Positions 27,807-51,061 of a stretch of 64,000 nucleotides of DNA are shown in pieces; positions within the stretch are counted from its first letter, which is position 1; every line of letters begins with the position of its first letter. Position numbers and translations under genes: made by a program. The notes beneath the pieces were generated by a model. The model had not been told where the DNA came from, made no database searches, and saw only the letters and a list, made by a program, of their open reading frames with translations. The stretch is from Candidatus Latescibacterota bacterium (lineage in GTDB: Bacteria; Latescibacterota; UBA2968; GCA-2709665): the NCBI GenBank assembly GCA_965208835.1, contig OZ242358.1, forward strand, positions 4,544,001 through 4,608,000, read 5' to 3'.

Positions 27807-27833
27807 CATCCTGTCCATCCTGTTCATCCATGT
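27807..27833. repeat. ATCCTG(TCC) 9-mer repeat cluster
   Basis: CATCCTGTCCATCCTGTTCATCCATG; related clusters at 38566..38596 and 51021..51061. Confidence 0.7.
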
Positions 27834-30950: not shown

Positions 30951-31032
30951 TGGCAGCCAGATGGCTCCCTCTCCGGGGTCCGCACGTTCCAAAGAATCTC
31001 ATCAATTTTTCTAATAGCAGATTGAAAAAGAC

Positions 31033-31061
31033 TTGACATCGATAATTCTCGTCCATTAATT
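31033..31061 (+). promoter_or_regulatory. Candidate promoter of the outer-membrane uptake cassette
   Basis: Perfect TTGACA in an AT-rich intergenic tract with an imperfect -10 (ATTAAT/TTAATT) 16-17 nt downstream. Confidence 0.4.
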
Positions 31062-31258
31062 GCGATTCGTAGGAATATTACTATCGTGATTTATTCGGAA
31101 TCATTTCCCACCTTATTCATCGAACAACTACGCATAGACGCCGGACGATAACACTGCAAGGAGGTGATGATCCGACAGGATTGATGGTGCGTTTTGCCTG
31201 ATGGCACCGGAATGTCCGGATGTTGCTCGTGACATCTGAATTTTGGAGGAGGTTGAAT

Positions 31259-31975
31259 ATGCGTAACGGTGTGTTGGTATGTATGGCAGCGGCGCTGCTG
31301 CTGCTTTCGGCGGGAACGGTCTACGGGGGCGGTGTGGCCGGAAGTTGGGGGCTCGGGATGTTCCTGGACTACAACCGGTCGATCTTCAAGCTGAAAGACT
31401 GGTATGAAACCGGCCGGGGGCAGGCAGGCGTCGTGTTCACCTACGTGATGAGTCCTAGGACCAGCGTGGAGATGGAGTTTCACCGGTCAATATTCGAGAA
31501 CGGAGCACTGGAAGACACCCCGTTTACCTGGCCCGTAGACGGCAGAGACTATAAGTCACCTGATGCTGCGAGCGAGATGCGTATCAGCAGCTTTCTGGTG
31601 AACGCGGTGGTCAGACGAGGAGGCGGAGGCATCCTTGCAAAGGAGAAGTATTCCACCTACGTGACCGTCGGCGCGGGCTTCTACGACTACAAGACGGACG
31701 TAAGCGGCCTGATCTTTCCGGGGCAACGCGAGGCGCCCCTGGACAAGGATCTGGTGATCGAGCCGTTCAGCGATTCGCGCACGGCACTGGGCGCCAACGT
31801 GGGCCTGGGTGTGGAGGCGTTCGTGTTCGATAACATTTCGCTGGATGTGCGCGCGCGGTACAATCTCCTGCTGGGCGAGTTAAGGCCGATGGAGGCGTGG
31901 GGTCTCGAAGGCCAGACGTTTCCGATGCAGTTCCTGAATGCGCGCGGGGGCATCCGGTTCTACTTCGAGAAATAG
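31259..31975 (+). CDS. Small outer-membrane beta-barrel protein (OmpA/OmpW-like)
   Basis: Signal peptide, YVTVGAGFY, LGANVGLGVEAF, SLDVRARY, terminal GGIRFYF. Confidence 0.8.
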   Translation: MRNGVLVCMAAALLLLSAGTVYGGGVAGSWGLGMFLDYNRSIFKLKDWYETGRGQAGVVFTYVMSPRTSVEMEFHRSIFENGALEDTPFTWPVDGRDYKSPDAASEMRISSFLVNAVVRRGGGGILAKEKYSTYVTVGAGFYDYKTDVSGLIFPGQREAPLDKDLVIEPFSDSRTALGANVGLGVEAFVFDNISLDVRARYNLLLGELRPMEAWGLEGQTFPMQFLNARGGIRFYFEK

Positions 31976-32065
31976 CAACGCAGGCGTGACATTGAAAGAG
32001 GCAGCCCGTTGGATCTCAGTTGGAATGTCTTGCAAGTGAAACAGACGCCGCGAAAAGGAGGAACC

Positions 32066-35000
32066 ATGAGCAGGCTCAGGTTTTTGACGGGCGCTGTGGT
32101 CGTTTTGTGTACCGTGTTCTTTGCCGCCAATGCGGTAATGGCCGCGACAACCGGCAAGATCGTCGGCCGCGTGACGGACGAGCAGGGGGAACCCCTGCCG
32201 GGCGCGAGTGTGGCGATTGAGGAAGCCCGGCTGGGCGGAACGACCGATGCGGACGGATTCTACGTGATCGTCTCCGTAACGCCCGGCCAGTACAAGCTGA
32301 CGGCATCGATGGTGGGGTATCACTCGGTGGTCAAAGAGCAGGTGGGCATACGGGTGGACTTCACCACAACGGTTGACTTTCAGCTTCGTGAAACCGAACT
32401 GGAACTGGAAGAGATGGTGGTCGTCGCCGAGAGACCGCCGGTGGATCCCGATAAGACGGACAGCCGTTACGTCGTGACCGCCGAGGAGATCGAGCGAACC
32501 CCCATTCTGAGAAACGTCACCGAGGTCCTGGAGCTGGAGCCGGGCTATGCCGTTGACGGCAGCGGCGCGATCCGGGGCTGGGTGGCCAGCCACAACGTCG
32601 TCTACGTAGACGGCGTTCCTGTTTCCGGCAGAGACGGGCGCGGCATCGGCGGCGGATGGGGCGACGGCGGCGAGAGACAGTGGTACGGCGTCAACCTCAA
32701 GGCGGTGCAGGAGGTCTCGGTCATCACGGGCGGTATGAACGCCGAGTACGGAAACGCGCAGGCAGGCGTCATCCAGATCGTAACGCGCGACGGCGGCGCG
32801 CAATATCACGGCGAGGCGGAATATCGTCTCACCCCTGCCGGCAAGAAACACTGGGGCGAGAATGTCTACGAGGCGCCGGAACTGCGTGGAAACGCGAAGT
32901 GGAACGATCCGGCGTGGACGTCCGAGGTGGACCCCGAAACGGGTAACCTCGTCCACCCGCGCACGAACTACACGGACTGGCGGGGCCACTACCTGGATGG
33001 GTTTCTCAGCGGTCCCCTGATGGGGAACTCGTCGTTCTTCGCCAGCGCCCGGCACCTGCGTGACGCCGCCGTGCTCCCCGGACCGTGGCGGACCCGGCCG
33101 GCAAACCTGAGGACCACGGCAAAGCTGACGGTCCCGGCGGGGTCGAACATGAAGCTGCGGATCGGATGGATGTACGACTTCTCGGAGAATTTCAACAACG
33201 GACGACTGTCCAGGTATAGCTTCCCGAACGTCATCCGGGGCCCGGGACGCGACCTCTTCATTCCCGATGGATCGATCGCGGGGGCGGAAAAACAGACCGA
33301 CAACATGATCTACGGTGTGATCACCCACACCATCAGCCCCAGGACGTTCTACGAAGTGAGCGTGTCTCGCTATGGAAGCCGGACGGACACCAGTGGCGTG
33401 GGGAATAAAACCACGTCCGTCAGGACCGACAGCGAAGGGTATTTCTACATCGGCCGGGAGGACGTCTGGGCATTCAAGGTCGGCGAGCAGAACCGTTTCA
33501 GCCTGAAGGCCGACCTGTCCAGCCAGATGACGCGGGGCCACTTCGCCAAGACCGGCTTCGAGTTCATGACGTTCGAGAACTGGTGGACGTGGACCGGCAT
33601 GACGCCCGGCGACGCGAAACGGGACATCCGTTACATCGGGCAGCCGGAACCCGGCGAGGCCGTGACGCCCAAACAGTTCGGCGCCTACGTCCAGGACAAG
33701 ATGGAGTTCGAGGGGTTGATCGTCAACGTCGGCCTGCGCTACGACCGCCTGTGGGGTCAGGACGTTCAGTTGCTGCCGTCGTTCACGTCGGGGTGGTACA
33801 ACGCGATGGATACGTTCATCCAGGCGCCCACCGGGCCCATGCGGACCATACAGGGCTGGAGCCCCAGGCTGGGTATCTCACACCCCATCACGGCCAGGTC
33901 CAGCATGCATTTCTACTACGGCCGATACATGATGATCCCCTCCTTCCGGCAGCAGTTCGGGAGCCATTGGGAGACGGCTTCCGGGCCGGACGGGATTCCC
34001 GGCGTCCCGTGGAGTCATTTCAACGCGAAAGACGAAAGCTACGGCGCCAACGTCATCAGTCCGGTCTGGGACCACGGTCACCCCACGACCAGTTTCGAGG
34101 TGGGTACGGACTGGAACTTCGTAAGCGACTACGTCTTCTCTTTGGCGGCGTTCTACAAGAGCGGCCATCTGCAGAGTACCGGCATCTGGCACGACGCCGT
34201 CGATCCTGTCACGGGCAGGACGGGCGCCATCGGGGGCACGTACGGTTCCGAACGCACGGAGGACGTCAAGGGGTTCGAGTTCAGCATGCGGAAGGGCTTC
34301 AGCAACTTCTTCGCGTTCCGCGCCGCAATGAACCTGGAGTGGCTGGAAGCCATCCACTGGCTGGGCGACGCCGAGACGGTTGCCAGCGTCCTGATCTATC
34401 CCGACCGGAGTTTCATCGCCAGCGGAAGGTATCACAAGGAATGGCGCGTCGCGGGTGGCCGCAGGGAACCCGTTCCGCTCACGGCGGAGGAGATCAAGAC
34501 GCTTGGCGACAAGGCGGAAGAGAACCTGCAAAAGGTCCGGGAGAATGTGAATGCCTTCAACGCCCGCGGCTCAGCGCCTCTCCAGCCGGCGTGGGAAGTC
34601 GAGGGCCTGACGGACGAAGCGAGAGAATGGCTTCAGGGCATCTGGTTTCAGAAGTTCTGGTTCAGCACCGGCAATATCTTCACGCGCGGACGCCGCAGCC
34701 AGGGCAGCCTTCAGATGTTCTTCTCCTCCCCGCTCGACTACGGTCCGGGCAAGCAGTACGCGGGCGCCACGCTGTTCGGCGGCATCAACGCCAACCTGAT
34801 CTACCGGATCTACACGGGCAGCAAATTCAATTACATCAAGCTGACCGGAGCCAACACGCCGGCGAGACGGCCCTTGCACACGGAGGCCGACCTGAACCTG
34901 CAGAAGCACTTCCGCTTCGGGAACGTGAACGCCGACGTGTTCGTGGAAGTGTTCAACCTGTTCAACCAGCAGGACGCCAGCGGCGTCACCGGTACGGACT

Positions 35001-35131
35001 ACATGTGGTGGGGGCTCCAGCAGCCCAGGCCCAACGACGCGACGTACCTCAATTACGGGGACGTTTCCGACCGTTCGCGCTATATAGGCAATCCCCGGAT
35101 AACGCACATGGGAATCAGGTTGAGCTTCTGA
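32066..35131 (+). CDS. TonB-dependent receptor with N-terminal carboxypeptidase-regulatory-like domain
   Basis: ATTGKIVGRVTD..GEPLPGASV, plug VQEVSVITGGMNAEYGNAQAGVIQIVT, YVQDKMEF, SPRLGISHPI, VFNLFN, terminal MGIRLSF. Confidence 0.92.
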   Translation: MSRLRFLTGAVVVLCTVFFAANAVMAATTGKIVGRVTDEQGEPLPGASVAIEEARLGGTTDADGFYVIVSVTPGQYKLTASMVGYHSVVKEQVGIRVDFTTTVDFQLRETELELEEMVVVAERPPVDPDKTDSRYVVTAEEIERTPILRNVTEVLELEPGYAVDGSGAIRGWVASHNVVYVDGVPVSGRDGRGIGGGWGDGGERQWYGVNLKAVQEVSVITGGMNAEYGNAQAGVIQIVTRDGGAQYHGEAEYRLTPAGKKHWGENVYEAPELRGNAKWNDPAWTSEVDPETGNLVHPRTNYTDWRGHYLDGFLSGPLMGNSSFFASARHLRDAAVLPGPWRTRPANLRTTAKLTVPAGSNMKLRIGWMYDFSENFNNGRLSRYSFPNVIRGPGRDLFIPDGSIAGAEKQTDNMIYGVITHTISPRTFYEVSVSRYGSRTDTSGVGNKTTSVRTDSEGYFYIGREDVWAFKVGEQNRFSLKADLSSQMTRGHFAKTGFEFMTFENWWTWTGMTPGDAKRDIRYIGQPEPGEAVTPKQFGAYVQDKMEFEGLIVNVGLRYDRLWGQDVQLLPSFTSGWYNAMDTFIQAPTGPMRTIQGWSPRLGISHPITARSSMHFYYGRYMMIPSFRQQFGSHWETASGPDGIPGVPWSHFNAKDESYGANVISPVWDHGHPTTSFEVGTDWNFVSDYVFSLAAFYKSGHLQSTGIWHDAVDPVTGRTGAIGGTYGSERTEDVKGFEFSMRKGFSNFFAFRAAMNLEWLEAIHWLGDAETVASVLIYPDRSFIASGRYHKEWRVAGGRREPVPLTAEEIKTLGDKAEENLQKVRENVNAFNARGSAPLQPAWEVEGLTDEAREWLQGIWFQKFWFSTGNIFTRGRRSQGSLQMFFSSPLDYGPGKQYAGATLFGGINANLIYRIYTGSKFNYIKLTGANTPARRPLHTEADLNLQKHFRFGNVNADVFVEVFNLFNQQDASGVTGTDYMWWGLQQPRPNDATYLNYGDVSDRSRYIGNPRITHMGIRLSF

Positions 35132-35197
35132 CGTGAGTGCGCCCCTCCGGAGAAGGAGGGACCGAACTCATTGGTCATCTTTGAGGAGGTCAAAGAA

Positions 35198-37468
35198 ATG
35201 AAAAGGAATATCGTAAGCGGGATTGCGCTCATGGCTCTGGTGTTCAGCACCTCGGTCCACGCGGAACTCCGGGTCCAGTCCCGTGCGAAGGTATGGGACA
35301 TCTACTGGAACTCGGGCACGCAGGGTGTGCGCGCCGCCACGCCCATGAGCTGGTACCGGCCCGTGGGCATGGCTTATCCGGGAAGGTTCTGGGTGCAGTA
35401 CCCGCAGGAATTCATCGACTACTGGGGCACCCGGACCTGGGGCGTCCGGTCCGAGTGGGTGGTCTACTACAACGAATTGTGCGGCACCATGCCCGGCTGG
35501 AACCAGTTCATCGCGACAAGAGTCGGCGGTGATTACCACGTTTCCGAGTCGAAGGCAACGCTTGAATCGGAGGACGTAGTCCCCATGGCCTACGATCCTT
35601 CGCAGGGGCCGGAGAGCAATATCGGCTACCGGAAGGTATCTCCCCTGGGTCCCGTTATGGCCAACTGGTGGCCGGGGCAGCCCGCGCCGGGTCCCGCTTC
35701 GCCGGTGGAGATCCACAACTACCGGTACAGCGAATATATGGACGCCGACAAGGACAACTTTCCGGAGAGCATCATCGTCAGCAAATGGACCACAAAGAAC
35801 GGCATCACCGTAACGAAAAAGTCGTACGCATGGAGCTATCCGGACTTCGACGACTTCCAGATTATGGAATATACGTTCGAGAACACCGGAGATTCGGACG
35901 GTGACGGCGTGTCGGACCTCGGCGGCGGCGGGCTGCAGTTGAACGATACGTTCCTGATTTTCTCCACCCGCTTTTACGCCTCCCAGTGCGGCCAGGCCCA
36001 CTATGCGGGGGATTCATTCTTCCGGCGTACCATTCCGATCGCGCTGGACGATTGGTACAAATATACCGAAGCGGCCAACTTCGACGGTCCGGGCGATGCG
36101 TTGGGGCTCAAGATGTGGTATGCTTTTGATGCGGACAATCCCGACCTGCCCGGAAACGACATCGGCAAACCCTATAGTGAGGAACGCGCCAACCAGAGCT
36201 GGCACCAGTGCTGTCTCCAGCAGACGAAAATCGAGGGGGAGATGGGGGCCTTCCAGTACATCGGCGCCGCCCCGCTGGCATACACGCCCGGATCGGTCAA
36301 CGATGCCTCGACCTTTACCTTCGACACCGGCGGAGACGCGAGCTTTATCGAGCCACGGGTGGCCGACCAGCCCCACACGGTCAAATGGTGGGACTACAGG
36401 GACCGAACGGATTTTTCGGAACCGGGTTCGGAAAACATGAGCTCCGAGCAGATCTACAGCGAACTGACGAGTCCCGCGCCATTCATAAAGGACAATCCCA
36501 CCACGATAGACGGGCTCGTCGCTTCCTTCGCCTATGGGCCGTACGACATGGCCCCCGGAGACAAGGTGAGAATCGTCTACGCCCTGGTGGCGGCCGCGCC
36601 GGTGGAGGAGAATATCTATGGTTGGGCCAAGCAGAGCCGGCAGGAAGATATGCTGTCGGACAAGCCCATGAACAACCTGCTCAAACACCACAAGGCCGCG
36701 GCCGACGCCTTCAGGTGGAACTACGATCTGCCCGATCCCCCGCCTGACGTCAAGACGGAAACCACCGCGTCGGTCGACGGATTCAACCTGATCAAGTGGA
36801 CCGACGCAGGCGACAATGCGACCGACCCCGACTACACCGGCGCCGAGGCGCAGGACATCGTGGGCTACCGGGTCTACCGCTCGGACTATAAAATCGACGA
36901 CTGGAAGCTGATGGCCGATGTCTCGCTGAAGGACCCGGAGTACTATAGCGGCGGCACCTACCAGGTTGAAGACAGAAGGTCCGTTGCGGGTTTCGAGTAC
37001 ACCTACCGCGTGGCCGCCTACGACTCGGGCCACGACGACTGGAACGGGACCGGGATGGCCATTCCGTCCATGGAAGGTGGCAACAGTGCGCCCGAGCAGT
37101 GGGCGGGCGGCGTTATGACCAGCGTACCCTTCGTGCCGGCCAACGCTTCGGCGGACCAGCTGGCGCGAGACGTGATCGTCGTCCCCAATCCGCACAAGGT
37201 GGACGGGGCCCACAACTATCCGTCAGCGGGGTTGATACGGTTTACGAATATCCCGCAAAAATGCACGATCCGGATCTACACCGTTGCGGGCGAGCTTGCC
37301 GCCTTGATTGAACACGAAGACCCCGCCCGGGGCGAAGCCGGATGGAACCAGATCCCCCACTCGCGCGGCGGTGACGTGCCCGCCGGCGTCTACTACTGGA
37401 TCGTCGAATCCCAGATGCCGGGGAGCGCGGGCCAGACACAGCGCGGAACGTTGATGATCATCAAGTAG
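35198..37468 (+). CDS. Secreted protein with FN3-like domain and T9SS type-A-CTD/FlgD-Ig-like C-terminus
   Basis: Sec signal (VHA|EL, no lipobox); GYRVYRS...YTYRVAAYD; C-terminus VVPNP...IRFTNIP...IRIYTVAGEL...W....GVYYWIVE...GTLMIIK. Confidence 0.8.
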   Translation: MKRNIVSGIALMALVFSTSVHAELRVQSRAKVWDIYWNSGTQGVRAATPMSWYRPVGMAYPGRFWVQYPQEFIDYWGTRTWGVRSEWVVYYNELCGTMPGWNQFIATRVGGDYHVSESKATLESEDVVPMAYDPSQGPESNIGYRKVSPLGPVMANWWPGQPAPGPASPVEIHNYRYSEYMDADKDNFPESIIVSKWTTKNGITVTKKSYAWSYPDFDDFQIMEYTFENTGDSDGDGVSDLGGGGLQLNDTFLIFSTRFYASQCGQAHYAGDSFFRRTIPIALDDWYKYTEAANFDGPGDALGLKMWYAFDADNPDLPGNDIGKPYSEERANQSWHQCCLQQTKIEGEMGAFQYIGAAPLAYTPGSVNDASTFTFDTGGDASFIEPRVADQPHTVKWWDYRDRTDFSEPGSENMSSEQIYSELTSPAPFIKDNPTTIDGLVASFAYGPYDMAPGDKVRIVYALVAAAPVEENIYGWAKQSRQEDMLSDKPMNNLLKHHKAAADAFRWNYDLPDPPPDVKTETTASVDGFNLIKWTDAGDNATDPDYTGAEAQDIVGYRVYRSDYKIDDWKLMADVSLKDPEYYSGGTYQVEDRRSVAGFEYTYRVAAYDSGHDDWNGTGMAIPSMEGGNSAPEQWAGGVMTSVPFVPANASADQLARDVIVVPNPHKVDGAHNYPSAGLIRFTNIPQKCTIRIYTVAGELAALIEHEDPARGEAGWNQIPHSRGGDVPAGVYYWIVESQMPGSAGQTQRGTLMIIK

Positions 37469-37527
37469 GGGCAGATCTCTATTTCTGCTCGGCTCAGGTC
37501 CATACTGAAACTTAAGGAGATGACGCG

Positions 37528-38481
37528 ATGAAACGGACGTTGTGGATCGGACTGACAGCGGCGGTGATCTGCGCCCTGCTCTACCCCCGGGGGGCGGACG
37601 CCCAGGACCAGCGGCGGTTGGCGCGGATGGTCCTCCCTGTTCTGAAGATCGATCATGGAGCACGAATGGCCGGTATGGGCGGTGCGTTCGTGGCCGTATC
37701 GGACAATATCGATGCCATATTTTCGAATCCCGCCGGACTTACGCATATCGAACGCGCCGCGTTTACGCTCGGATACACCCGGTGGCTGATGAACGACCAC
37801 ATCCTTACGGGCGGGATGGCCTACAACACGGCGTACGGGGTTCTGGGTGTTAACGTCGTTACCTTCAGCCCCCACGAGTTCGAAGAGACGACCATTTTCC
37901 AGCCCACCGGGACCGGACGGTACCCGGATATGGGCGATCTCTCGCTGGGCGTGGTCTACGCCAGGAAACTGACGGACAAACTCTCCGTCGGCTCGATGTT
38001 CCGCTGGACCCAACAGACCCTCGATACCGACCGCCTGAACGCGTGGGACGTCGGCGTATCCACGTTTTTCTATACCGGTTTCAGGAGCCTGCGCCTCGGC
38101 ATGACGTTCGAGAACATGGGCAAGGACGTCAAGGTGATTGACGACGTCAGGAAGATGCCGGTTGCCTTCAGCACGGCCGCGGCAATGGAAATTGTCGGCG
38201 CCACGGGCGACCCCACCTATATCACGGTAACCTTCGAAAATTCCTACGCCACGGATTTCGCCGACCCGCAGTACCGGTTCGGCGGCGAACTCTGGCTTCA
38301 GAACAACTTTGCCCTCCGGGCGGGCTATAAGGCGAACTTCGACGAAGAGTCGTGGACGCTCGGAGCGGGTTTGAAATTCTCGATGCCGAACGGGCGGATC
38401 GTGCAGGCCGACGTCGCGTACAGCGATTTCGGCACGTATCTGGATGCCCCGCTGCGGTTCACGCTGAGCGGCGCATTCTAA
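37528..38481 (+). CDS. PorV/PorQ-family outer-membrane barrel
   Basis: LKIDHGARMAGMGGAFVAVSDNIDAIFSNPAGL signature, ALRAGY, terminal F. Confidence 0.85.
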   Translation: MKRTLWIGLTAAVICALLYPRGADAQDQRRLARMVLPVLKIDHGARMAGMGGAFVAVSDNIDAIFSNPAGLTHIERAAFTLGYTRWLMNDHILTGGMAYNTAYGVLGVNVVTFSPHEFEETTIFQPTGTGRYPDMGDLSLGVVYARKLTDKLSVGSMFRWTQQTLDTDRLNAWDVGVSTFFYTGFRSLRLGMTFENMGKDVKVIDDVRKMPVAFSTAAAMEIVGATGDPTYITVTFENSYATDFADPQYRFGGELWLQNNFALRAGYKANFDEESWTLGAGLKFSMPNGRIVQADVAYSDFGTYLDAPLRFTLSGAF

Positions 38482-38501
38482 GCTTTCAGGAAGCATCTTG
38501 T

Positions 38502-38542
38502 AAAAGAGAAATGGCGGTCCTCAGGGATTGCCATTTCTTTTT
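38502..38542 (+). terminator. Rho-independent terminator closing the OMP-TBDR-CTD-PorV cassette
   Basis: AGAAATGGCGGTCC-TCAG-GGATTGCCATTTCT hairpin plus T-run, about 20 nt after the stop. Confidence 0.75.
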
Positions 38543-38666
38543 ATCCTCATTTGCTCAAAATGCCGAACTTACATGGATGGGCAGGATAGGCAGGATCAAA
38601 AACGATCAGGACTGTCGCGGGGAGCATCCGATAGTTTGCCCTTTTTTCACAACATTGACCGGGCAT

Positions 38667-38747
38667 CCTGAGCCGCTCCCTGAGCTTGTCGAAGGGTCGG
38701 CGAAGGAAAAAGGGAGCCGAAACGCGGGCGCTTCGACAAGCTCAGCG
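38667..38747. repeat. REP-like CTTCGACAAGCTCAG element, copy 2
   Basis: CTGAGCCGCTCCCTGAGCTTGTCGAAGGGTCGGCGAAGG ... CTTCGACAAGCTCAG. Confidence 0.8.
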
Positions 38748-39015
38748 TCCCCGTTTGGGCAAGTTTCTCTCTAACGTAGCAGGCATAATAGATGTCAACC
38801 ATTTACTGCTCCCGGCAATAAGCAGGATTGATAAAGATTAAACAGGATAAGAAACCAAGAGCAGGATCCCAGGGTTACGACACACGCCTTTCCGCATCGA
38901 TACCTTCTACGTCTTTTGTGCTTTTTGTGGCCGATACGACGGTTTTCTTTTCTCGAATTATGTTTAATGTTCAGTCATCGGATTCTGCCGCCGGCGCGGC
39001 GGTGAGGGGCGAAGT

Positions 39016-40227
39016 GTGGGTCGATTTCGGAAGATCTGTCTGACGTGCGATGTGCAGCAGGATGCCCAGGCCTTGAACTGCGGCTTCTGCGCGGGACCTC
39101 TGGGATTTCGATACCACTATCACGACGTTGCATGGGACGACCGCTTCGACGGTACCATGTGGCGCTACTGGCCCCTGCTTCCGGTAGACGCCCCCGATGG
39201 CGCCGTGACCCTGGGCGAAGGCGGTACCCCTCTGCTGCCCGCCCGGAGCTTCGACGGACACCAGGTCTATCTGAAGGACGAGACCCGCAACCCCACCGGA
39301 TCCCATAAGGATCGTTCGCTCTCGGTTGCGATCACACACGCGAAGGCCATCGGCGCGGATGTTTCCGTCATCGTATCGACAGGCAGCGCGGGCATCTCGA
39401 ACGCCGCGCTGGCCGCACGGGCGGGCATGCGCAGCGTCGTGGTCATGACCGGGGGAACGCCGCCCGATCGGCTTTACCCCATGTACGGCCTGGGCGCGGT
39501 GCTTGTCGAGGTGAAGGCCCTGATCGATCCGATCGTGCAGGGGGTGATTGATGTCTGTCGTGAACATGGACTCTATCTGAGCACCACCAGCCGGAATTCC
39601 AATCCCTACCAATCCGAGGGGAACAAAACCATCGCCTTCGAGATTGTGGAGGAACTCGGCAAGGCGCCGGACTGGGTCGTGGTTCCCGTGGGTGGCGGCG
39701 GCACCGTATCGGGGGTCTGGCGGGGGTTTCAGGATTGTCTGGCGCTCGGACTCACTGACGCCCTTCCCAGAATGATCGGCGTGGTGCCTCGAGACTACAA
39801 TGCGCTGGAGGCGGCCATTGAACGCGGATTGAACCGCTGGGAAGACGTGCTGGCGCTGCCCTATGACAACCCGCCGCCTTCCATTCTGGTGAAACTCGCC
39901 CACGGCTACCCCCCGGACGGCATGGAAGCCCTGGAGACCATACGTTCGTCGAGCGGTTTTTTCATTTCCGTCACGGACGAGGAAGCCCTTTCAGCCCAGG
40001 AAGCCTGCGGACGGCGGGAAGGACTGTTCGTGGAGCCGTCCACGGGCGCATGCCTGGCCGGCACAACCCGTCTGATGGACTCGGGACAGGTCCGTCCCGA
40101 AGACGTCGTCGTCGCCATCGTCAGCGGTTCCGGCTATCGCGAAACCGCGTGTACCATGGCCGTACGTCCACTCGCGACACAGGCGATTTCCATAGAAGAA
40201 CTGTCCGATACCCTTTCGGAACTCTAA
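39016..40227 (+). CDS. Threonine synthase-like PLP enzyme (fold type II)
   Basis: N-terminal CxxC..CxxC, LGEGGTPL, NPTGSHKDR, PVGGGG, VEPST. Confidence 0.85.
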   Translation: MGRFRKICLTCDVQQDAQALNCGFCAGPLGFRYHYHDVAWDDRFDGTMWRYWPLLPVDAPDGAVTLGEGGTPLLPARSFDGHQVYLKDETRNPTGSHKDRSLSVAITHAKAIGADVSVIVSTGSAGISNAALAARAGMRSVVVMTGGTPPDRLYPMYGLGAVLVEVKALIDPIVQGVIDVCREHGLYLSTTSRNSNPYQSEGNKTIAFEIVEELGKAPDWVVVPVGGGGTVSGVWRGFQDCLALGLTDALPRMIGVVPRDYNALEAAIERGLNRWEDVLALPYDNPPPSILVKLAHGYPPDGMEALETIRSSSGFFISVTDEEALSAQEACGRREGLFVEPSTGACLAGTTRLMDSGQVRPEDVVVAIVSGSGYRETACTMAVRPLATQAISIEELSDTLSEL

Positions 40228-40239
40228 AGGAACGAAAGA

Positions 40240-41262
40240 ATGTCACTGCATCTTGCAAAGTGGCGTCGTCGCGAAGAGCCGATCCTGTCCGCGCTGACCA
40301 CCCGCCAGGACTGGTGCCGGGTTGAACTCTACAATCCGACGGTGATCCGCGCGGCGGACAGGTACATGATGTGGTACATCGCTCAAGGTACCGCTACCCG
40401 TACAGACGATTCGGTCGTGGGCTTTGCCGAATCGGACGACGGAATCCACTGGAACGAGCACCCGGACAACCCCATCCTCACCCGCGACGATCTGCCGGCC
40501 TGCGACGCCTGGCAGACACCCCACGTGATCTTCGACGCGGACGAAGGCCTGTTCAAGATGTGGTTCATCATGTCGACCGTGGTCCGGGGCGGTCCAACCT
40601 GGCTCGTGAGCTTCGCGCAGCAACTGGGTTATGCCACCAGCCGCGACGGGCTGAAATGGGACGTACATCCGGAGCCGATCTATCACAGCGGGCGACGTCC
40701 GTGCGTGATCAAGGACGGTCCTGGTGCCTACCGGATGTGGATGAACTCATCGCCGACGCCCGACGGAAGCTTCGACGACCTGGTACATCACATCTATCGC
40801 TTCGAATCCACGGACGGCCTCCGCTGGACGCGCGACCCCGAACCCGCCGTGAGCTTCAACGAGAAACTCAGGGGAACGGTCTATCCATTCGTCATGCGCG
40901 ACGGCGACGGATATATCATGTGGTACGGCGCCTGGCCCGCCGGCGGCGAAGTGGTGATCGACACGGGGTCCGAATCGCCGCTGGTCCGCCCCGTATTCGA
41001 AATCTACTGCTCCACGTCGTCCGATGGCCTCGTCTGGACCCACCACCACGACGCGCCCGCCCTGCCGGCAACGCGGGATCCGAACCACTACGACGGGCGG
41101 TATACCTCCACGCCGTGCGTCGTGGACGGCGGGGACCGCTATCTGATGTATTATTCGGCCCGCGATTGGGGTACCCTCTACAGGACGGGCGCCGACACGC
41201 TTGGCATCGACAGAGCCGGAATCTACCGCCACATCGGCGTGGCCGAGAGCGACAGGACCTGA
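40240..41262 (+). CDS. Five-bladed beta-propeller hydrolase-like protein (GH32/43/130 clan-like)
   Basis: Repeated MWY...(A/S)xSxDGxxW blades, DNPIL, YTSTPCV. Confidence 0.75.
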   Translation: MSLHLAKWRRREEPILSALTTRQDWCRVELYNPTVIRAADRYMMWYIAQGTATRTDDSVVGFAESDDGIHWNEHPDNPILTRDDLPACDAWQTPHVIFDADEGLFKMWFIMSTVVRGGPTWLVSFAQQLGYATSRDGLKWDVHPEPIYHSGRRPCVIKDGPGAYRMWMNSSPTPDGSFDDLVHHIYRFESTDGLRWTRDPEPAVSFNEKLRGTVYPFVMRDGDGYIMWYGAWPAGGEVVIDTGSESPLVRPVFEIYCSTSSDGLVWTHHHDAPALPATRDPNHYDGRYTSTPCVVDGGDRYLMYYSARDWGTLYRTGADTLGIDRAGIYRHIGVAESDRT

Positions 41263-41288
41263 AATGTCGGCGATGAAGAGGAGAACGA

Positions 41289-43283
41289 GTGGACAGCGCT
41301 CGAGCACACGATCCGAGGCAACACGCGCAATCGGAGAATCAGCCGGCGCCGTCGGAAGACGGGCTGACCCTTCGCGCATTCCTGATCGGTCTGGGTCTCT
41401 GCGTGTTCATGGGCGTCGCGTTGACCTACAACCGGATGGTCGTCCAGGGGCCGTTCATGGGCAACTACCATATGGACCGGGGCGTACTGTTCGTTTTCTT
41501 TATTCTCGTGCTGGTGGTCAACCCTCTGGCGGGAGCCCTGAAGCGCCGCTTCTCACTCGGGCGGGGCGAATTACTGGCCATCTACGTCATGTTGCTGTTT
41601 CTGATGCCGTCATGGAAGATGACCAAGGCCCTGCTGGGTTTCATGACGGGCGTCACCTACTATGCCTCGCCGGAAATGCGGCACCTGGAAGCCGTGTTGC
41701 CCAATGCCCTGCCCTGGCTGTCGATCCTGGATACCGAAACGGTACGGGGGCTGTACGACGGGCTTCCCGCCGGGGACCCGGTACCCTGGTGGTCGTGGGT
41801 GGTTCCCCTGTGGAGCTGGGGGTCGTTCCTGGTCGTGCTTTACGTCGTGCTCGTCTGCCTGGCAGTACTCATGAGAAAGCAGTGGGAGGAGCACGAGCGC
41901 TTCGCGTTTCCCATCATGCAGGTGCCGCTGGAGATGAGCATGATGGGCGCGCGGACGGTGGGTCCCCTGTTCCGCGGCAGAATGATGTGGGGAGGGTTCG
42001 CGGTACCCTTTCTGATCGGATTGTTGAACGGGCTTCAGAGGTACTACTATTCGCTTCCGCGGATTCCGCTGCGGACGATTCTATGGATCTTCCGACGGGC
42101 GATTCCCTTGCACATCGGTCTTCATTTCGCGATTTTCGGGTACTCGTATTTCGTGAATACGGACGTAAGCCTGAGCATCTGGCTGTTCAACGTCATCGCA
42201 AAATGCATCAGCGGAATTCTGGCCATTGTGGGGGCGGAGACATACGGCGTCTCCGGGGTCGTAGGGAGGCACAGTTCGCAGGGATCGGAACTCCTGGCGA
42301 TGCTGGGCATGGGGTATATGCTCGGCCTGGCGGGGTACAGTCTGTGGATCGCGAGGGGGCACCTGCGTGAGGTCTGGGCCAGGGCCATGGGCCGCCCATC
42401 GCGCCTGGACGATTCGGATGAGGTGGTCCCCTATCGATCCGCGGTGGCCGGGATCGTTGCAGGGACACTCTATCTCGGATGCTGGCTCTACCAGGCGGGC
42501 ATCTCTCCCCATCTGGTCCTGCTGCTGGGCTTCTTCAGCTTTGTCGTCTTTCTGGTGCTCGCCCGGATCGTGAGCGAGACCGGATATTCCGTAACCTATT
42601 CCCCGCTGAATCCGTCTGAGTTCGTCGTATGCGCCGTGGGTTCCGCGGCGTTCAGTCCGACGGGGCTGACATCTCTGGGCGTCAGTTTCGCCTGGACGAT
42701 GACCCGGTTGAATACGCTGATGCCAAGGGCCTCCGGCGCGCTGCGACTCGCACGGGAGATCGGACGCAAGCGGGGGCTGCTGGTGGCGATGGGCGCCGCG
42801 CTGGCCGCCGGCCTGGTCGCGGCGAGCTATACGACGCTCCAACTGGGATACGAACACGGCGGTCGCAATTTGGACTACTGGTTCCGGGACGTGAACGACT
42901 GTGCGTTGCCGTTCGACGAATACATCGGTCGCAGGCTGCTCTCACCCTCGCCCATCTTCTACCCCGGATTCCTGTATACGGGTCTGGGCGTGGGTGTCGT
43001 GGTGTTGATGATGGCGCTCCGTTCGCGGCTTCCGTGGTGGCCGCTGCACCCGGTGGCGCTGCCGGTGAGTACGATCGCCTATACGCACAACTATTTTTTC
43101 AGCGTATTTCTCGCCTGGGGAATCAAGTCGCTCGTGCTGCGGTTCGGAGGCGCCAATCTCTACAGGACGACCCGGCCGCTCTTCATGGGGATCATCCTCG
43201 GCGAGGCGGTCTGCCTGGGAATGTGGATCGTCATCGACAGCATCACGGGCAAAGTGGGCGGGATCTGGATCCTGCAACCGTGA
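41289..43283 (+). CDS. DUF6785/DUF6784-type multi-pass membrane protein (putative transporter)
   Basis: Many TM helices; GLTLRAFLIG, RKQWEEHERFAFP, RIVSETG, PWWPLHPV, FLAWGIKSLVLRFGG..LY...PLFMGIILG. Confidence 0.75.
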   Translation: MDSARAHDPRQHAQSENQPAPSEDGLTLRAFLIGLGLCVFMGVALTYNRMVVQGPFMGNYHMDRGVLFVFFILVLVVNPLAGALKRRFSLGRGELLAIYVMLLFLMPSWKMTKALLGFMTGVTYYASPEMRHLEAVLPNALPWLSILDTETVRGLYDGLPAGDPVPWWSWVVPLWSWGSFLVVLYVVLVCLAVLMRKQWEEHERFAFPIMQVPLEMSMMGARTVGPLFRGRMMWGGFAVPFLIGLLNGLQRYYYSLPRIPLRTILWIFRRAIPLHIGLHFAIFGYSYFVNTDVSLSIWLFNVIAKCISGILAIVGAETYGVSGVVGRHSSQGSELLAMLGMGYMLGLAGYSLWIARGHLREVWARAMGRPSRLDDSDEVVPYRSAVAGIVAGTLYLGCWLYQAGISPHLVLLLGFFSFVVFLVLARIVSETGYSVTYSPLNPSEFVVCAVGSAAFSPTGLTSLGVSFAWTMTRLNTLMPRASGALRLAREIGRKRGLLVAMGAALAAGLVAASYTTLQLGYEHGGRNLDYWFRDVNDCALPFDEYIGRRLLSPSPIFYPGFLYTGLGVGVVVLMMALRSRLPWWPLHPVALPVSTIAYTHNYFFSVFLAWGIKSLVLRFGGANLYRTTRPLFMGIILGEAVCLGMWIVIDSITGKVGGIWILQP

Positions 43284-43337
43284 GCGTGCAGACGGCGCGG
43301 CTCGGGTGCCGCCACGCCGATCGAAGAGGATACATAT

Positions 43338-44156
43338 ATGGATTCAGGAGCAGATCGGATGCAAAGCGAACTGGACCAGATGCGCGTCAACGGCTGGTGT
43401 GTGGTCAAGGACGTCGTACCCGAGGACCGGGTTACGGCGGTGAGAGAGCGCGTTATGGATGCCGTACATCGGCACGCGAATGCCGAAACGCTCGACGAAA
43501 AGGGCATCGGCCACGTCTCCGGTTTCGTCGCCCGGGAGCAGTCTTTCGCGCCCTATGTGGCGGATTCCGGGGTCATGGGCGTCGTCATGGGAATGCTGGG
43601 CGAACACGTCCGGATCTCATTCACAACCGCGACGGTGAATTTCCCCGGTAACCCGCGCGGCGCGTGGCACGCCGACTGGCCCTTCAACCAGAACAACGCG
43701 GGGCATATTGCCGCGCCCTATCCCGACGCGGTGATGCACCTCACCACGCTATGGATGCTCTCCCCCTTCAGTGCGAAAAACGGAGGAACCCTCATTCTTC
43801 CCGGCAGCCACCGTTCGAACAACAATCCAAGCGGGGGAAACGGATTCGACCCGCTCGGCGCGATTCCCGGCGAATGCAACGCGGAAGGCGAAGCGGGAAG
43901 CGTGCTGATGCTGGACAGCCGGCTGTGGCACGCCTCGGCCCCCAACCGTTCCGACGAGCCTCGCGTGTCGGTCGTCATTCGCTACGCGCCCTGGTGGCTC
44001 GATACCGGTGTTCTGATGCCCGGGTCCGACGAGCGGAGACTGATGCTGGAGGCCACCGGACTGAATGCGCCCGAAGTCCCGCCCGTTCCCCGGGAAGTGT
44101 ATGATTCGATGCCGGAAAAGGTGAAGCCCCTTTTCAGGCACTGGGTGCGGTCGTAG
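43338..44156 (+). CDS. Phytanoyl-CoA dioxygenase (PhyH)-family Fe(II)/2OG oxygenase
   Basis: NGWCVVKDV, WHADW (HxD), GGT..LPGSH, DSRLWH, R. Confidence 0.9.
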   Translation: MDSGADRMQSELDQMRVNGWCVVKDVVPEDRVTAVRERVMDAVHRHANAETLDEKGIGHVSGFVAREQSFAPYVADSGVMGVVMGMLGEHVRISFTTATVNFPGNPRGAWHADWPFNQNNAGHIAAPYPDAVMHLTTLWMLSPFSAKNGGTLILPGSHRSNNNPSGGNGFDPLGAIPGECNAEGEAGSVLMLDSRLWHASAPNRSDEPRVSVVIRYAPWWLDTGVLMPGSDERRLMLEATGLNAPEVPPVPREVYDSMPEKVKPLFRHWVRS

Positions 44157-44205
44157 GACTGGCGTCTTGCCGAATCGTATCAGTCGTAACTGGAGGTGTA
44201 CCGAG

Positions 44206-45159
44206 ATGGCCGAGACAGCGACAAAAGCCAAGTATACCGCGCCGAATCCCGGGTTTGGTTTCTCGGATGTGCCACAGACCGAATTCGACTATCCATTCCC
44301 GGCCCTGACGCTGGAGCAGCGGATGCGGTTCGAGCTTTTCGGGTACACCATCGTCGAGGACCTGTTTACCGAGCCGGAGTTGCAGTCCATAGAAGCGTCA
44401 GCCAACAAACTGAAGGCGGAAATCCTGGACGCGGCCGGCAACGTCGAGATCACGCCGCCTCCGCCGCCCAGGAAATACGAGGACTTCCGGGACGGGGCGA
44501 TCTGGCGGGCGAACCGGAGGAGGACGGCTTCGGGCGACCTTCACCTGGAACGTCTTGAGATTGAGAACGTGCTGGGCCTGGACCCCGTCTACCTGTCGGT
44601 TCTGACAAGGCCGCGCGTCTTGGGGATCGCCACGGAACTGCTGGGCGGGACATTTCGCTTCCATCAGGTCGCCGTCCGCTTCAACCGGCGTTCCGAAACC
44701 CCCGTTCTGGGATGGCACGGCGGGGTGACCCGGCACAAGGACCGGGCGGTCCGCAAGAATGGCTGGTTCCATACGCAGATCCTCGGTTTGATCCTCTATC
44801 TCACGGACGTGGGCCGTGGCGACGGCGGTACCGGGATCTTCGCGGGAAGTCACAGACTCGACCTCTCGTACGACGATCTGAAACAGTACATCACGGACCA
44901 TCCGGACTCCGAGTTCTTCCACCAGACCACGGCAAAGCGGGGCTCGGCGCTGCTGTTCGCCGACGGCCCGTTGATGCACCGGACCATCAACATCGAGACG
45001 GACAGGGAACGGCTCATCATGCTCTCGCGGCTGGTCCATTCCGACTACGAGTTCGGCGGAATGGCGTCACTCGGACAGACCGACCACGTACCGCATGAGC
45101 TGATGCCGCTGTTCTATGGACGGGCGTTCACGCCCAGATATCGACCCCGCGGGGAATAA
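44206..45159 (+). CDS. PhyH-family Fe(II)/2OG enzyme with HxG instead of HxD/E
   Basis: FGYTIVEDL, GWHGG, YLTDV...GGT.IFAGSH, LMH, R. Confidence 0.85.
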   Translation: MAETATKAKYTAPNPGFGFSDVPQTEFDYPFPALTLEQRMRFELFGYTIVEDLFTEPELQSIEASANKLKAEILDAAGNVEITPPPPPRKYEDFRDGAIWRANRRRTASGDLHLERLEIENVLGLDPVYLSVLTRPRVLGIATELLGGTFRFHQVAVRFNRRSETPVLGWHGGVTRHKDRAVRKNGWFHTQILGLILYLTDVGRGDGGTGIFAGSHRLDLSYDDLKQYITDHPDSEFFHQTTAKRGSALLFADGPLMHRTINIETDRERLIMLSRLVHSDYEFGGMASLGQTDHVPHELMPLFYGRAFTPRYRPRGE

Positions 45160-51020: not shown

Positions 51021-51061
51021 GATCCTGTTGATCCTGTCCATCCTGTCCATCCATGTAAGTT
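51021..51061. repeat. ATCCTG 9-mer repeat cluster
   Basis: GATCCTGTTGATCCTGTCCATCCTGTCCATCCATGTAAGTT; its end matches the reverse complement of 38566..38587. Confidence 0.7.

Follow-up and report, generated by a model that had tools for sequence, protein, structure and literature searches.

We describe here a four-gene unit of Candidatus Latescibacterota bacterium to which we would give an even chance of being a nutrient-uptake module independent of SusD, one in which the surface partner of a TonB-dependent transporter (TBDT) is held by a private PorV-like barrel. The unit lies in a stretch of 64,000 nucleotides, hereafter the window (GenBank assembly GCA_965208835.1, contig OZ242358.1, positions 4,544,001 to 4,608,000 of the forward strand), and encodes, in this order, a small outer-membrane barrel, the transporter, a secreted protein of 756 amino acids (aa) ending in a variant type IX secretion system (T9SS) tail, and a barrel of the PorV/PorQ family (Table 1). 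The parts are all of known kinds; it is their combination that is new, and we found no published description of an operon that joins a transporter, a T9SS-tail protein and a PorV-like barrel in the literature searched, most subscription journals lying outside that search. The host genome is a single contig of 5.18 Mb with 59.5% GC, and is 97.8% complete. An initial annotation, made from the sequence of the window, had described the locus as four tightly linked, co-oriented genes. All four are present on the + strand where it placed them, with an AT-rich leader on one side, a strong terminator hairpin on the other and gaps of 90, 66 and 59 nt, and each of the four proteins begins with a hydrophobic stretch like that of a signal peptide.

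The four genes recur together and share their history

The genome carries five complete copies of the unit in the same gene order, four of them beyond the window, as found by BLAST against six-frame open reading frames (ORFs). These paralogous sets have diverged: the tail protein is 28-35% identical between them, while the transporter reaches 34-39%, the PorV-like barrel 40-43% and the small barrel 31-48%. Hidden Markov models (HMMs) built from the five sets were used to search related loci, for which we took the best 80 of 280 stretches of GTDB species genomes that encode a relative of the tail protein. These loci, drawn from 43 assemblies, carry the label Latescibacterota in 60 cases, Gemmatimonadota in 13, Marinimicrobia in two and KSB1 in one, with four unlabelled, and the near-identical loci (93-99% protein identity) are titled Candidatus Latescibacterota, some of their bins being Gemmatimonadota. 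The complete order on one strand is found in 70 of the 80, and seven of the other ten end at a contig edge (L015, L023, L062, L064, L075, L080 and L081). The small barrel heads the unit in the same 70 loci and in all five copies of this genome, and is absent from three loci (L048, L060 and L061) despite enough upstream flank. Around the tail protein the arrangement is tighter still: the PorV-like gene stands directly 3' of it in 78 of 80 loci and the transporter gene directly 5' in 78 of 80, with the exceptions at contig ends. One of the 70 loci (L089:5341-8820) has the tail protein and the PorV-like barrel in one stop-to-stop frame, which could be a fusion or an assembly frameshift; it was counted as complete in the tally of gene order and excluded from the trees. 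The recurrence of the four-gene order, five times in one genome and in 70 of 80 related loci, goes far beyond chance, and a lack of conservation elsewhere, which the initial annotation had named as refuting its reading, is not seen.

The four gene families also share their phylogeny. In FastTree trees of 74 complete modules (69 loci plus the five of this genome), the patristic distances of the families correlate with r 0.87-0.92 over all six pairs. When module membership was reshuffled within genomes (18 genomes, 51 modules), the mean r was 0.28-0.32 and the maximum 0.64, and none of the 1000 shuffles reached the observed values. Because the congruent trees beat all within-genome shuffles, the parts have not been exchanged between paralogous modules. 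Judged by these trees, then, the four genes are inherited as a unit, which does not imply that their products bind each other; the co-phylogeny of the tail protein with its PorV paralog, proposed earlier as a check, is part of this congruence.

The tail-protein family is widespread in the phylum, with matches (E up to 1e-10) in 101 of the 151 genomes sampled. It is found in all 48 genomes of two families in the order to which the window belongs, at 3 to at least 7 copies each; many of the matches in family f3 are weak, perhaps partial ones. Among 1.84 billion cluster representatives at 50% identity, 433 match the family profile below 1e-30, none of them named, and 2,679 below 1e-10.

The secreted protein ends in a divergent T9SS tail

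The C-terminal tail of the 756-aa protein is predicted to form a seven-strand Ig-like sandwich (residues 660-754 of the model). An hhalign comparison of 48 family tails with 21 canonical ones of this genome (TIGR04183) gave a clear match (Prob 96.6, E 5e-10, 82 columns) that ended at the very last residue. The canonical profile holds 21 of the 24 TIGR04183 matches of the genome, three having been dropped whose match ended at least 12 residues before the stop. Given its homology to the type-A tails that the genome itself encodes, we regard the tail as a real but divergent T9SS C-terminal domain (CTD), which bears out the description of it as CTD-like. Its divergence is such that those 24 matches include not one of the five cassette proteins, and the canonical type-A models (TIGR04183 / PF18962) gave no Pfam match for the window tail at E up to 0.1. 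The type-B model PF13585 CHU_C gave 13.6 bits (cut-off 27, E 0.074), and among the 48 family members, at E up to 0.01, six match CHU_C (best 6.3e-5), one FlgD_ig and one Por_Secre_tail. The best NCBIfam match of the tail is the C-terminus of PorZ (E 4.5e-4). By sequence comparison, the tail is closer to type A than to type B.

The genome encodes SprA and lacks SusD

The initial annotation had suggested looking for sprA, porU, porK and susD. SprA is encoded in a single frame of 2094 aa that scores 631 bits. A PorU-like frame, about 1,930-1,940 aa long and carrying a type-A tail itself, scores 220 bits, below the equivalog cut-off, and the porK part of the look-up yielded only a GldK-type match through a domain like that of the formylglycine-generating enzyme (FGE). 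At least 24 type-A tails (TIGR04183) are encoded. The best PorV candidate scores 153 bits to the equivalog, again below the cut-off (G000 4051853-4056214, L001, where G000 denotes positions in the whole genome); its neighbour, 1032 aa long and type-A-tailed, resembles the 'T9SS-dependent M6-like inactivated metalloprotease' (183 bits, cut-off 600). This T9SS may have a diverged motor or a different one, the GldL and GldM models finding nothing here and being silent in the control genomes as well. In the phylum, SprA is found in 146 of the 151 sampled genomes and in 100 of the 101 that carry the tail-protein family, the sole exception having a weak family match only.

SusD, in turn, is missing, as the initial annotation had it for the locus. 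SusD_RagB has no match in the whole genome and none in the 19 genomes of the window's own family, and across the phylum it is found in 28 of 151 genomes, with one match each.

The last gene encodes a PorV/PorQ-family barrel of its own subfamily

The 317-aa barrel encoded by the last gene scores 154.1 bits with NF033709, the PorV/PorQ family (cut-off 90), and its four paralogs in the other cassettes score 137-177 bits. Neither PorV proper (equivalog NF033710, 62.1 bits, cut-off 250) nor PorQ proper (NF033711, 56.1 bits, cut-off 220) fits it. The 74 cassette barrels are split from the genome's four other PorV-family paralogs by a branch with SH-like support of 96, in a tree made by FastTree only and with long branches.

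PorV-family barrels are described as homologues of FadL (PMC12578637), and it could be argued that this one, as a FadL-type channel, passes a hydrophobic or amphipathic substrate and has no role in a T9SS, next to a tail that is a plain Ig-like module. A weak match to Toluene_X (PF03349) and the failure of the canonical tail models on the tail would both fit such a picture. However, the Toluene_X match, at 20.8 bits, stays under its cut-off of 29.7 and covers residues 50-83 only, while the PorV family is well above its own. Moreover, a 39-member profile of the barrel finds, up to E = 1, a single match in the PDB, PorV of F. johnsoniae (6h3i_F, E 8e-20), with FadL chains absent. The alignment of the tail with real T9SS tails up to the last residue, and the presence of SprA in nearly every genome with the tail-protein family, also speak against the channel, which we consider very improbable. 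The PorV-like assignment made from the sequence alone has therefore held against its FadL alternative.

A body with the fold of glycan-active enzymes

The body of the 756-aa protein escapes family models. No Pfam or NCBIfam model lies above threshold, and 68 relatives found among 5.8 billion proteins are all without Pfam domains; those that bear a name are termed hypothetical, except for one NCBI name, 'fibronectin type III domain-containing protein'. The protein is not a lipoprotein, as there is no Cys near the predicted cleavage site (…STSVHA/ELRV). Its AlphaFold model, built on an alignment of 48 sequences, is of good quality (predicted local distance difference test, pLDDT, 88.6; predicted template modelling score, pTM, 0.89) and was compared exhaustively with 48,161 PDB chains by VIA-align, a tool with a background Z of 7-8. 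From residue ~20 to ~510, with extensions to ~640, the model matches the N-domain of glucoamylase best (1lf6_A, Z 18.2, root-mean-square deviation 3.0, 235 aligned residues). At Z 15-17 follow the N-domains of glucodextranase, of cellobiose and cellodextrin phosphorylases and of glycoside hydrolase (GH) families GH15, GH94, GH65 and GH116, and more than 20 N-domains of glycan enzymes stand above Z 13; aldose epimerases reach Z 11-13. In the model, the body is a galactose-mutarotase-like supersandwich, a fold typical of glycan-active enzymes, and no (alpha/alpha)6 catalytic domain follows it. The region behind it is a fibronectin type III (FN3) sandwich, for which Foldseek finds FN3 tandems. 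A Foldseek search of the whole model against the PDB gives weak global matches (TM-score, TM, ~0.1-0.25) to the N-domains of GH116 and GH94, to FN3 tandems and to PorZ (prob 0.6). A secreted protein with FN3 and without a lipid anchor had been predicted, and both the lack of a lipobox Cys and the structure model agree with that prediction.

Instead of forming a stable complex, the PorV-like barrel could be a dedicated shuttle, with the tail cleaved and the protein released or linked to a surface glycolipid; it would then be a free or loosely bound glycan binder or enzyme, whose products a co-regulated transporter takes up. In Porphyromonas, PorU normally cleaves type-A tails (PMC11285876), to which this tail is homologous, and a PorU-like gene is present in the genome. 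Standalone supersandwich enzymes are also among the fold matches, namely the aldose epimerases and a GH174 fucanase (Z 12.8, over residues 76-375 of its 449), and synteny and co-inheritance need no more than co-regulation. Against the shuttle stands the number of barrels: the genome's canonical PorV already serves at least 24 type-A tails, yet each copy of the unit has a private barrel (five of five here, 78 of 80 related loci), and therefore a lasting one-to-one partnership fits better. In addition, the known cognate pairs, PorQ with PorZ and PorP with type-B cargo, are described as anchoring pairs (PMC10202324). We regard the shuttle as a rather unlikely alternative.

The transporter is a TBDT without a clear SusC identity

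The second gene encodes a generic TBDT, as judged by the plug, the TBDT fold, a TonB-box-like motif and the presence of TonB in the genome (10 TonB_C matches). The longest ORF starts at a TTG (32009), and the signal peptide is predicted from the Met at 32066. PF13620 CarboxypepD_reg scores 72.6 bits and PF07715 Plug 45.9 bits (cut-off 23.9). Before the plug lies the motif VVVAERPP, which is invariant or nearly so in 24 family sequences, V120, A122 and P125 being invariant; we take it to be the TonB box. The predicted structure (pLDDT 75.3, pTM 0.72) matches PfeA (E 6.8e-24, TM 0.65 on the target), FepA and FusA in Foldseek, and matches SusC (5fq6_B, E 6.6e-21, TM 0.52) about equally well as these classical TBDTs, all four lying within E 1e-20 to 1e-24. 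A SusC/RagA identity was considered and discarded: TIGR04056 gives 60.9 bits, far from its cut-off of 368.25, and covers only the N-terminal 215 residues. Similarly, a 24-member profile of the transporter run against the PDB retrieves no full-length SusC chain, only plug regions of the FepA/Cir type and a fragment of the N-terminal extension of SusC. The receptor is thus not SusC-like by sequence, a point that the initial annotation did not raise.

The small barrel is a less certain family member, PF13505 OMP_b-brl being barely above its cut-off (29.7 bits, cut-off 28.7); its nearest clusters in the language-model Atlas are OMP_b-brl proteins. Both outer-membrane proteins (OMPs) were thus recognised correctly from the sequence, the HMM scan finding OMP_b-brl in one, and CarboxypepD_reg and Plug in the other.

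A transporter that is by sequence neither SusC-like nor specific for siderophores could also work outward. In Myxococcus xanthus, secretion of the protease PopC reportedly requires the TBDT Oar, and a carboxypeptidase regulatory domain is mentioned for it (PMC6434023), so that by description the two proteins share the type of their N-terminal domain. The unit would then be a secretion or surface-assembly device for the 756-aa protein or for other cargo, a role to which the missing match for a GldLM motor of the T9SS (the controls being silent too) would also be suited. This reading is weakened because an export route already exists, given the T9SS-type tail on the cargo and SprA in the genome; moreover, the polytopic membrane protein and the sugar-metabolic genes that accompany the unit fit import. 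We think an Oar-like, outward function improbable.

Boundaries and expression of the unit

The initial annotation had bounded the unit by an AT-rich promoter region and a clear terminator, and GC content does fall on both sides, to 0.50 at 31000-31499 and 0.49 at 38500-38999, compared with 0.58-0.66 within the unit and ~0.60 around the upstream leader. A ribosome-binding site, GGAGGAGG, precedes the ATG (31259) of the small barrel gene. The promoter itself would lie in the leader; a scan for the sigma-70 consensus, which does not cover promoters from the FCB group (Fibrobacteres-Chlorobi-Bacteroidetes), found no promoter on the + strand 5' of the unit. The terminator hairpin has a folding energy of -25.7 kcal/mol (z -6.31), and none of 200 shuffled sequences was as stable; a simple terminator scan had not flagged it.

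RNA libraries contain contigs that match the unit. In one of them a single contig of 6,884 nt lies on 31642-38490 (415 differing letters, 16 gaps, ~94% identity) and spans all three gene junctions; in a second library of the same study, five overlapping contigs cover 31247-38479, and short pieces at 90-99% identity occur in two other studies. These data are contigs only, in which gaps or low cover beyond the unit are not readable as transcript ends, and they are consistent with expression of the unit and no more, as DNA is possible in such libraries.

A DUF6785/6784 membrane protein often accompanies the unit

Downstream of the unit, and outside the coordinates first given for it, lies a gene for a polytopic membrane protein with DUF6785 and DUF6784, from which the terminator and two enzyme genes separate it. 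In clustered flanking ORFs, this family is found downstream on the same strand in 48 of the 80 related loci, sometimes twice, and often only 1-250 nt past the stop of the PorV-like gene. In this genome, which has 23 BLAST matches to the protein (one a 141-aa fragment; members also lie beyond the window, at G000 4619813-4629171), a gene of the family lies within 2.8-6.1 kb of four of the five cassettes, the chance expectation being roughly estimated at ~5% per cassette. The copy of locus L017 (664 aa; the family has ~665 aa) contains at least nine hydrophobic 19-mers. We found no mention of DUF6785, DUF6784, PF20581 or PF20580 in the literature searched, with the same limit regarding subscription journals. 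The protein is probably a recurrent fifth component and the inner-membrane partner of the unit.

Other genes and motifs of the neighbourhood are as follows. Beyond the terminator, at 39016-45159, the DUF6785/6784 gene stands in a run of + strand genes together with those for an enzyme dependent on pyridoxal phosphate (PLP), a weakly GH130-like protein and two PhyH-type dioxygenases; upstream of the unit are Amidohydro_2, GFO/IDH/MocA and xylose-isomerase-like TIM-barrel genes. This neighbourhood suggests catabolism of sugars or sugar derivatives, without clear carbohydrate-active enzymes (CAZymes). In 29 of the 80 loci (for example L032:9354-10748 and L049:9484-12261), a GWxTD or TPR protein family is encoded directly 3' of the PorV-like gene, and it is also found beside cassette 5 (G000 4181026-4183800); it may be a further accessory part in some cassette subfamilies. 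Directly 5' of cassette 2 (L011:2292-3167; G000 628291-629166) is a gene for a 291-aa protein with Cohesin (29.7 bits) and a canonical type-A/FlgD_ig tail; on the other side, this cassette is followed by a TPR gene and by two GldK-like genes with an FGE-sulfatase domain. With 36 occurrences in the window, compared with 13.6 expected, the heptamer RCAGGAT reaches a count seen in none of 100 shuffles. It forms intergenic clusters at 38581-38867 (+), 27808-27823 (-) and 51022-51046 (-), with five copies in the 290 bp that separate the cassette terminator from the operon after it, and doublets or triplets at 9-bp spacing elsewhere; the heptamer may represent a regulator site or else a small repeat. 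Also downstream of the cassette, in intergenic DNA, is a perfect inverted repeat of 13 bp, GAGCTTGTCGAAG … CTTCGACAAGCTC, whose arms (38682-38694 / 38731-38743) lie 36 nt apart and inside which a terminator-like site was flagged on the - strand.

Table 1. Coordinates of the unit, its parts and the accompanying membrane protein gene in the window
Feature	Position	Strand	Description
AT-rich leader, probable promoter region	31000..31258	+	GC drop; promoter itself inferred
Small outer-membrane beta-barrel, 238 aa	31259..31975	+	Signal peptide; PF13505 OMP_b-brl
TonB-dependent transporter, ~1021 aa	32066..35131	+	CarboxypepD_reg, TonB-box-like motif, plug, 22-strand-type barrel, large loops
Secreted non-lipoprotein, 756 aa	35198..37468	+	Signal peptide 1-22, supersandwich ~23-510, FN3 ~515-612, linker, tail ~655-756
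Galactose-mutarotase-like beta-supersandwich	35264..36727	+	VIA-align structural search
FN3-type beta-sandwich	36740..37033	+	Seven strands, residues 521-609 of the model
Variant T9SS C-terminal domain	37160..37465	+	PNP…IRF…IYT..G…GVY…IIK; hhalign and model
PorV/PorQ-family outer-membrane barrel, 317 aa	37528..38481	+	Cassette-specific subfamily; NF033709
Intrinsic terminator hairpin	38503..38542	+	18-bp stem, then T tract
DUF6785+DUF6784 polytopic membrane protein, 664 aa	41289..43283	+	PF20581 355.8 bits, PF20580 92.4 bits

Discussion

How might the parts of this unit work together? We propose a route of secretion, a seat for the tail, a contact with the transporter, a place on the cell surface, a kind of substrate and a direction of transport, all of which we infer from the data above. 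The 756-aa protein would cross the inner membrane by Sec via its signal peptide, and would then be directed by its variant tail through the SprA translocon across the outer membrane. The tail would remain uncleaved and stay on the PorV/PorQ-like barrel encoded next to it, as PorZ stays on PorQ and type-B cargo on PorP/SprF, and the retained tail would keep the supersandwich-FN3 body at the cell surface, next to the operon's own transporter. There, the body could capture, and perhaps trim, a glycan-type substrate and pass it to the transporter for TonB-powered import, after which transfer of the product over the inner membrane would probably fall to the nearby DUF6785/6784 protein. The small barrel may be a further, less constant member of the complex, and the five diverged copies per genome would probably serve different substrates.

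Several known systems resemble the unit in part. Among them are the SusC/SusD (RagA/RagB) pairs and utilisomes of Bacteroidota, in which a large TBDT with a carboxypeptidase-regulatory-like N-domain likewise stands beside a surface partner, and whose loci likewise occur as many diverged paralogous sets per genome, with sugar-metabolic genes and a membrane transporter nearby. In contrast, the genome of our unit has no SusD, the partner is a supersandwich protein of the Sec/T9SS type and not a TPR lipoprotein, the transporter fails the SusC/RagA model, and the unit has two extra barrels.

For the pairing of a tail with a barrel, the precedents come from the T9SS itself. In Porphyromonas gingivalis, PorQ-PorZ and PorV-PorU are pairs of a PorV/PorQ-family barrel with one tailed protein, and the PorZ tail is proposed to be kept uncleaved for binding and anchoring to PorQ (PMC10202324); it is the C-terminus of PorZ, moreover, that the tail of the unit matches best among the NCBIfam models. 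Unlike those pairs, the barrel of the unit fails both equivalogs, the pair lies in a transporter operon that is present five-fold, and there is no PorZ or PorU body. Similarly, genes for type-B cargo are described as clustering with those of cognate PorP/SprF barrels (for example SprB-SprF), thought to anchor the cargo (PMC10202324); as in our unit, the cargo gene and that of its private barrel are adjacent, and the few weak CHU_C matches among the family tails (6 of 48) add to the likeness. However, the barrel of the unit belongs to the PorV/PorQ family, its tail is closer to type A, and the known type-B pairs come without a transporter.

Two further systems offer likenesses of arrangement. 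BamG, a 14-strand FadL/PorV-like barrel, is described as docking tightly on BamA and serving as a platform for surface proteins (PMC12578637), so that a FadL/PorV-like barrel lies against a larger barrel, the arrangement we propose for the PorV-like barrel and the transporter. Unlike our unit, that complex is an OMP-folding machine with surface lipoproteins, and the BamG model gives 18.8 bits here, with a cut-off of 250. The cluster chu_1276-chu_1280 of Cytophaga hutchinsonii is described as an atypical polysaccharide-utilisation locus (PUL) without SusD, in which a non-SusD glycan-binding surface protein, encoded with TBDT-like OMPs, is needed for use of the substrate (PMC12016534). Compared by description, its binder differs in having an SGBP-B-like architecture (SGBP, surface glycan-binding protein), and the main text of that paper makes no mention of T9SS, CTD or PorV.

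Several of our observations weigh against an uptake module, or at least against parts of it. The transporter is no nearer to SusC than to siderophore receptors. The supersandwich has no recognised catalytic domain with it, and function does not follow from a shared fold. Tandem duplication would lead one to expect linked genes to be inherited together whether or not their products bind, and the RNA-library contigs prove neither a single transcript nor transcription. As for the secretion system, both the PorU-like gene and the best PorV gene lie under their equivalog cut-offs, the models of GldL, GldM and PorP/SprF have no match in the genome (the control genomes being equally silent), and GldK is matched only through the FGE-like, sulfatase-type domain. 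In the window, a strong terminator stands between the unit and the gene for the DUF6785 protein. Its immediate neighbours encode general enzymes of sugar and amino-acid metabolism and not clear CAZymes: GHL10 stays below its cut-off (23.6 bits, cut-off 27.9), and GH130 barely reaches its own (26.6, cut-off 26) with no single stretch passing alone. On the other side stand the gene order, the family of the barrel, the homology of the tail and the glycan-type fold, and these partly support the earlier interpretation of the locus as an alternative polysaccharide-utilisation architecture that merges T9SS display with TonB uptake; for polysaccharide as the substrate, only the fold and the neighbourhood speak. 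Similarly, of the secretion genes sought in the genome, SprA stood out clearly, with the PorU-like gene a weaker find.

Among the uncultured degraders of organic matter, Latescibacterota, Marinimicrobia, KSB1 and their relatives are abundant. The unit is among the most multiplied outer-membrane gene sets of these phyla. If it is indeed a SusD-independent uptake module, it would be a second, independent solution to the problem solved by SusC/SusD, and it would widen the role of the T9SS from the display of enzymes and adhesins to the building of transporter complexes. The pairing of its tail and barrel would constitute a third class beside PorV with type A and PorP with type B. Moreover, it would give the DUF6785/6784 families their first functional context, and would supply a marker set for uptake loci in phyla where the prediction of PULs based on susC and susD fails.

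It is tempting to go further and to picture a SusD-independent utilisome made of T9SS parts, in which the transporter and the small and PorV-like barrels would form a single multi-barrel complex of the outer membrane. The PorV-like barrel would permanently hold the uncleaved tail and so place a mutarotase-like, glycan-binding domain as a lid over the transporter mouth, and every copy (five here, seven or more in relatives) would have a substrate of its own and a matching DUF6785/6784 permease. We put this forward tentatively, as a possibility that we hold to be unlikely in all its parts at once. If true, Latescibacterota and several other uncultured FCB phyla would capture nutrients mainly through this architecture, DUF6785/6784 would be a new family of inner-membrane permeases, and PorV-family barrels would be general sockets for surface proteins.

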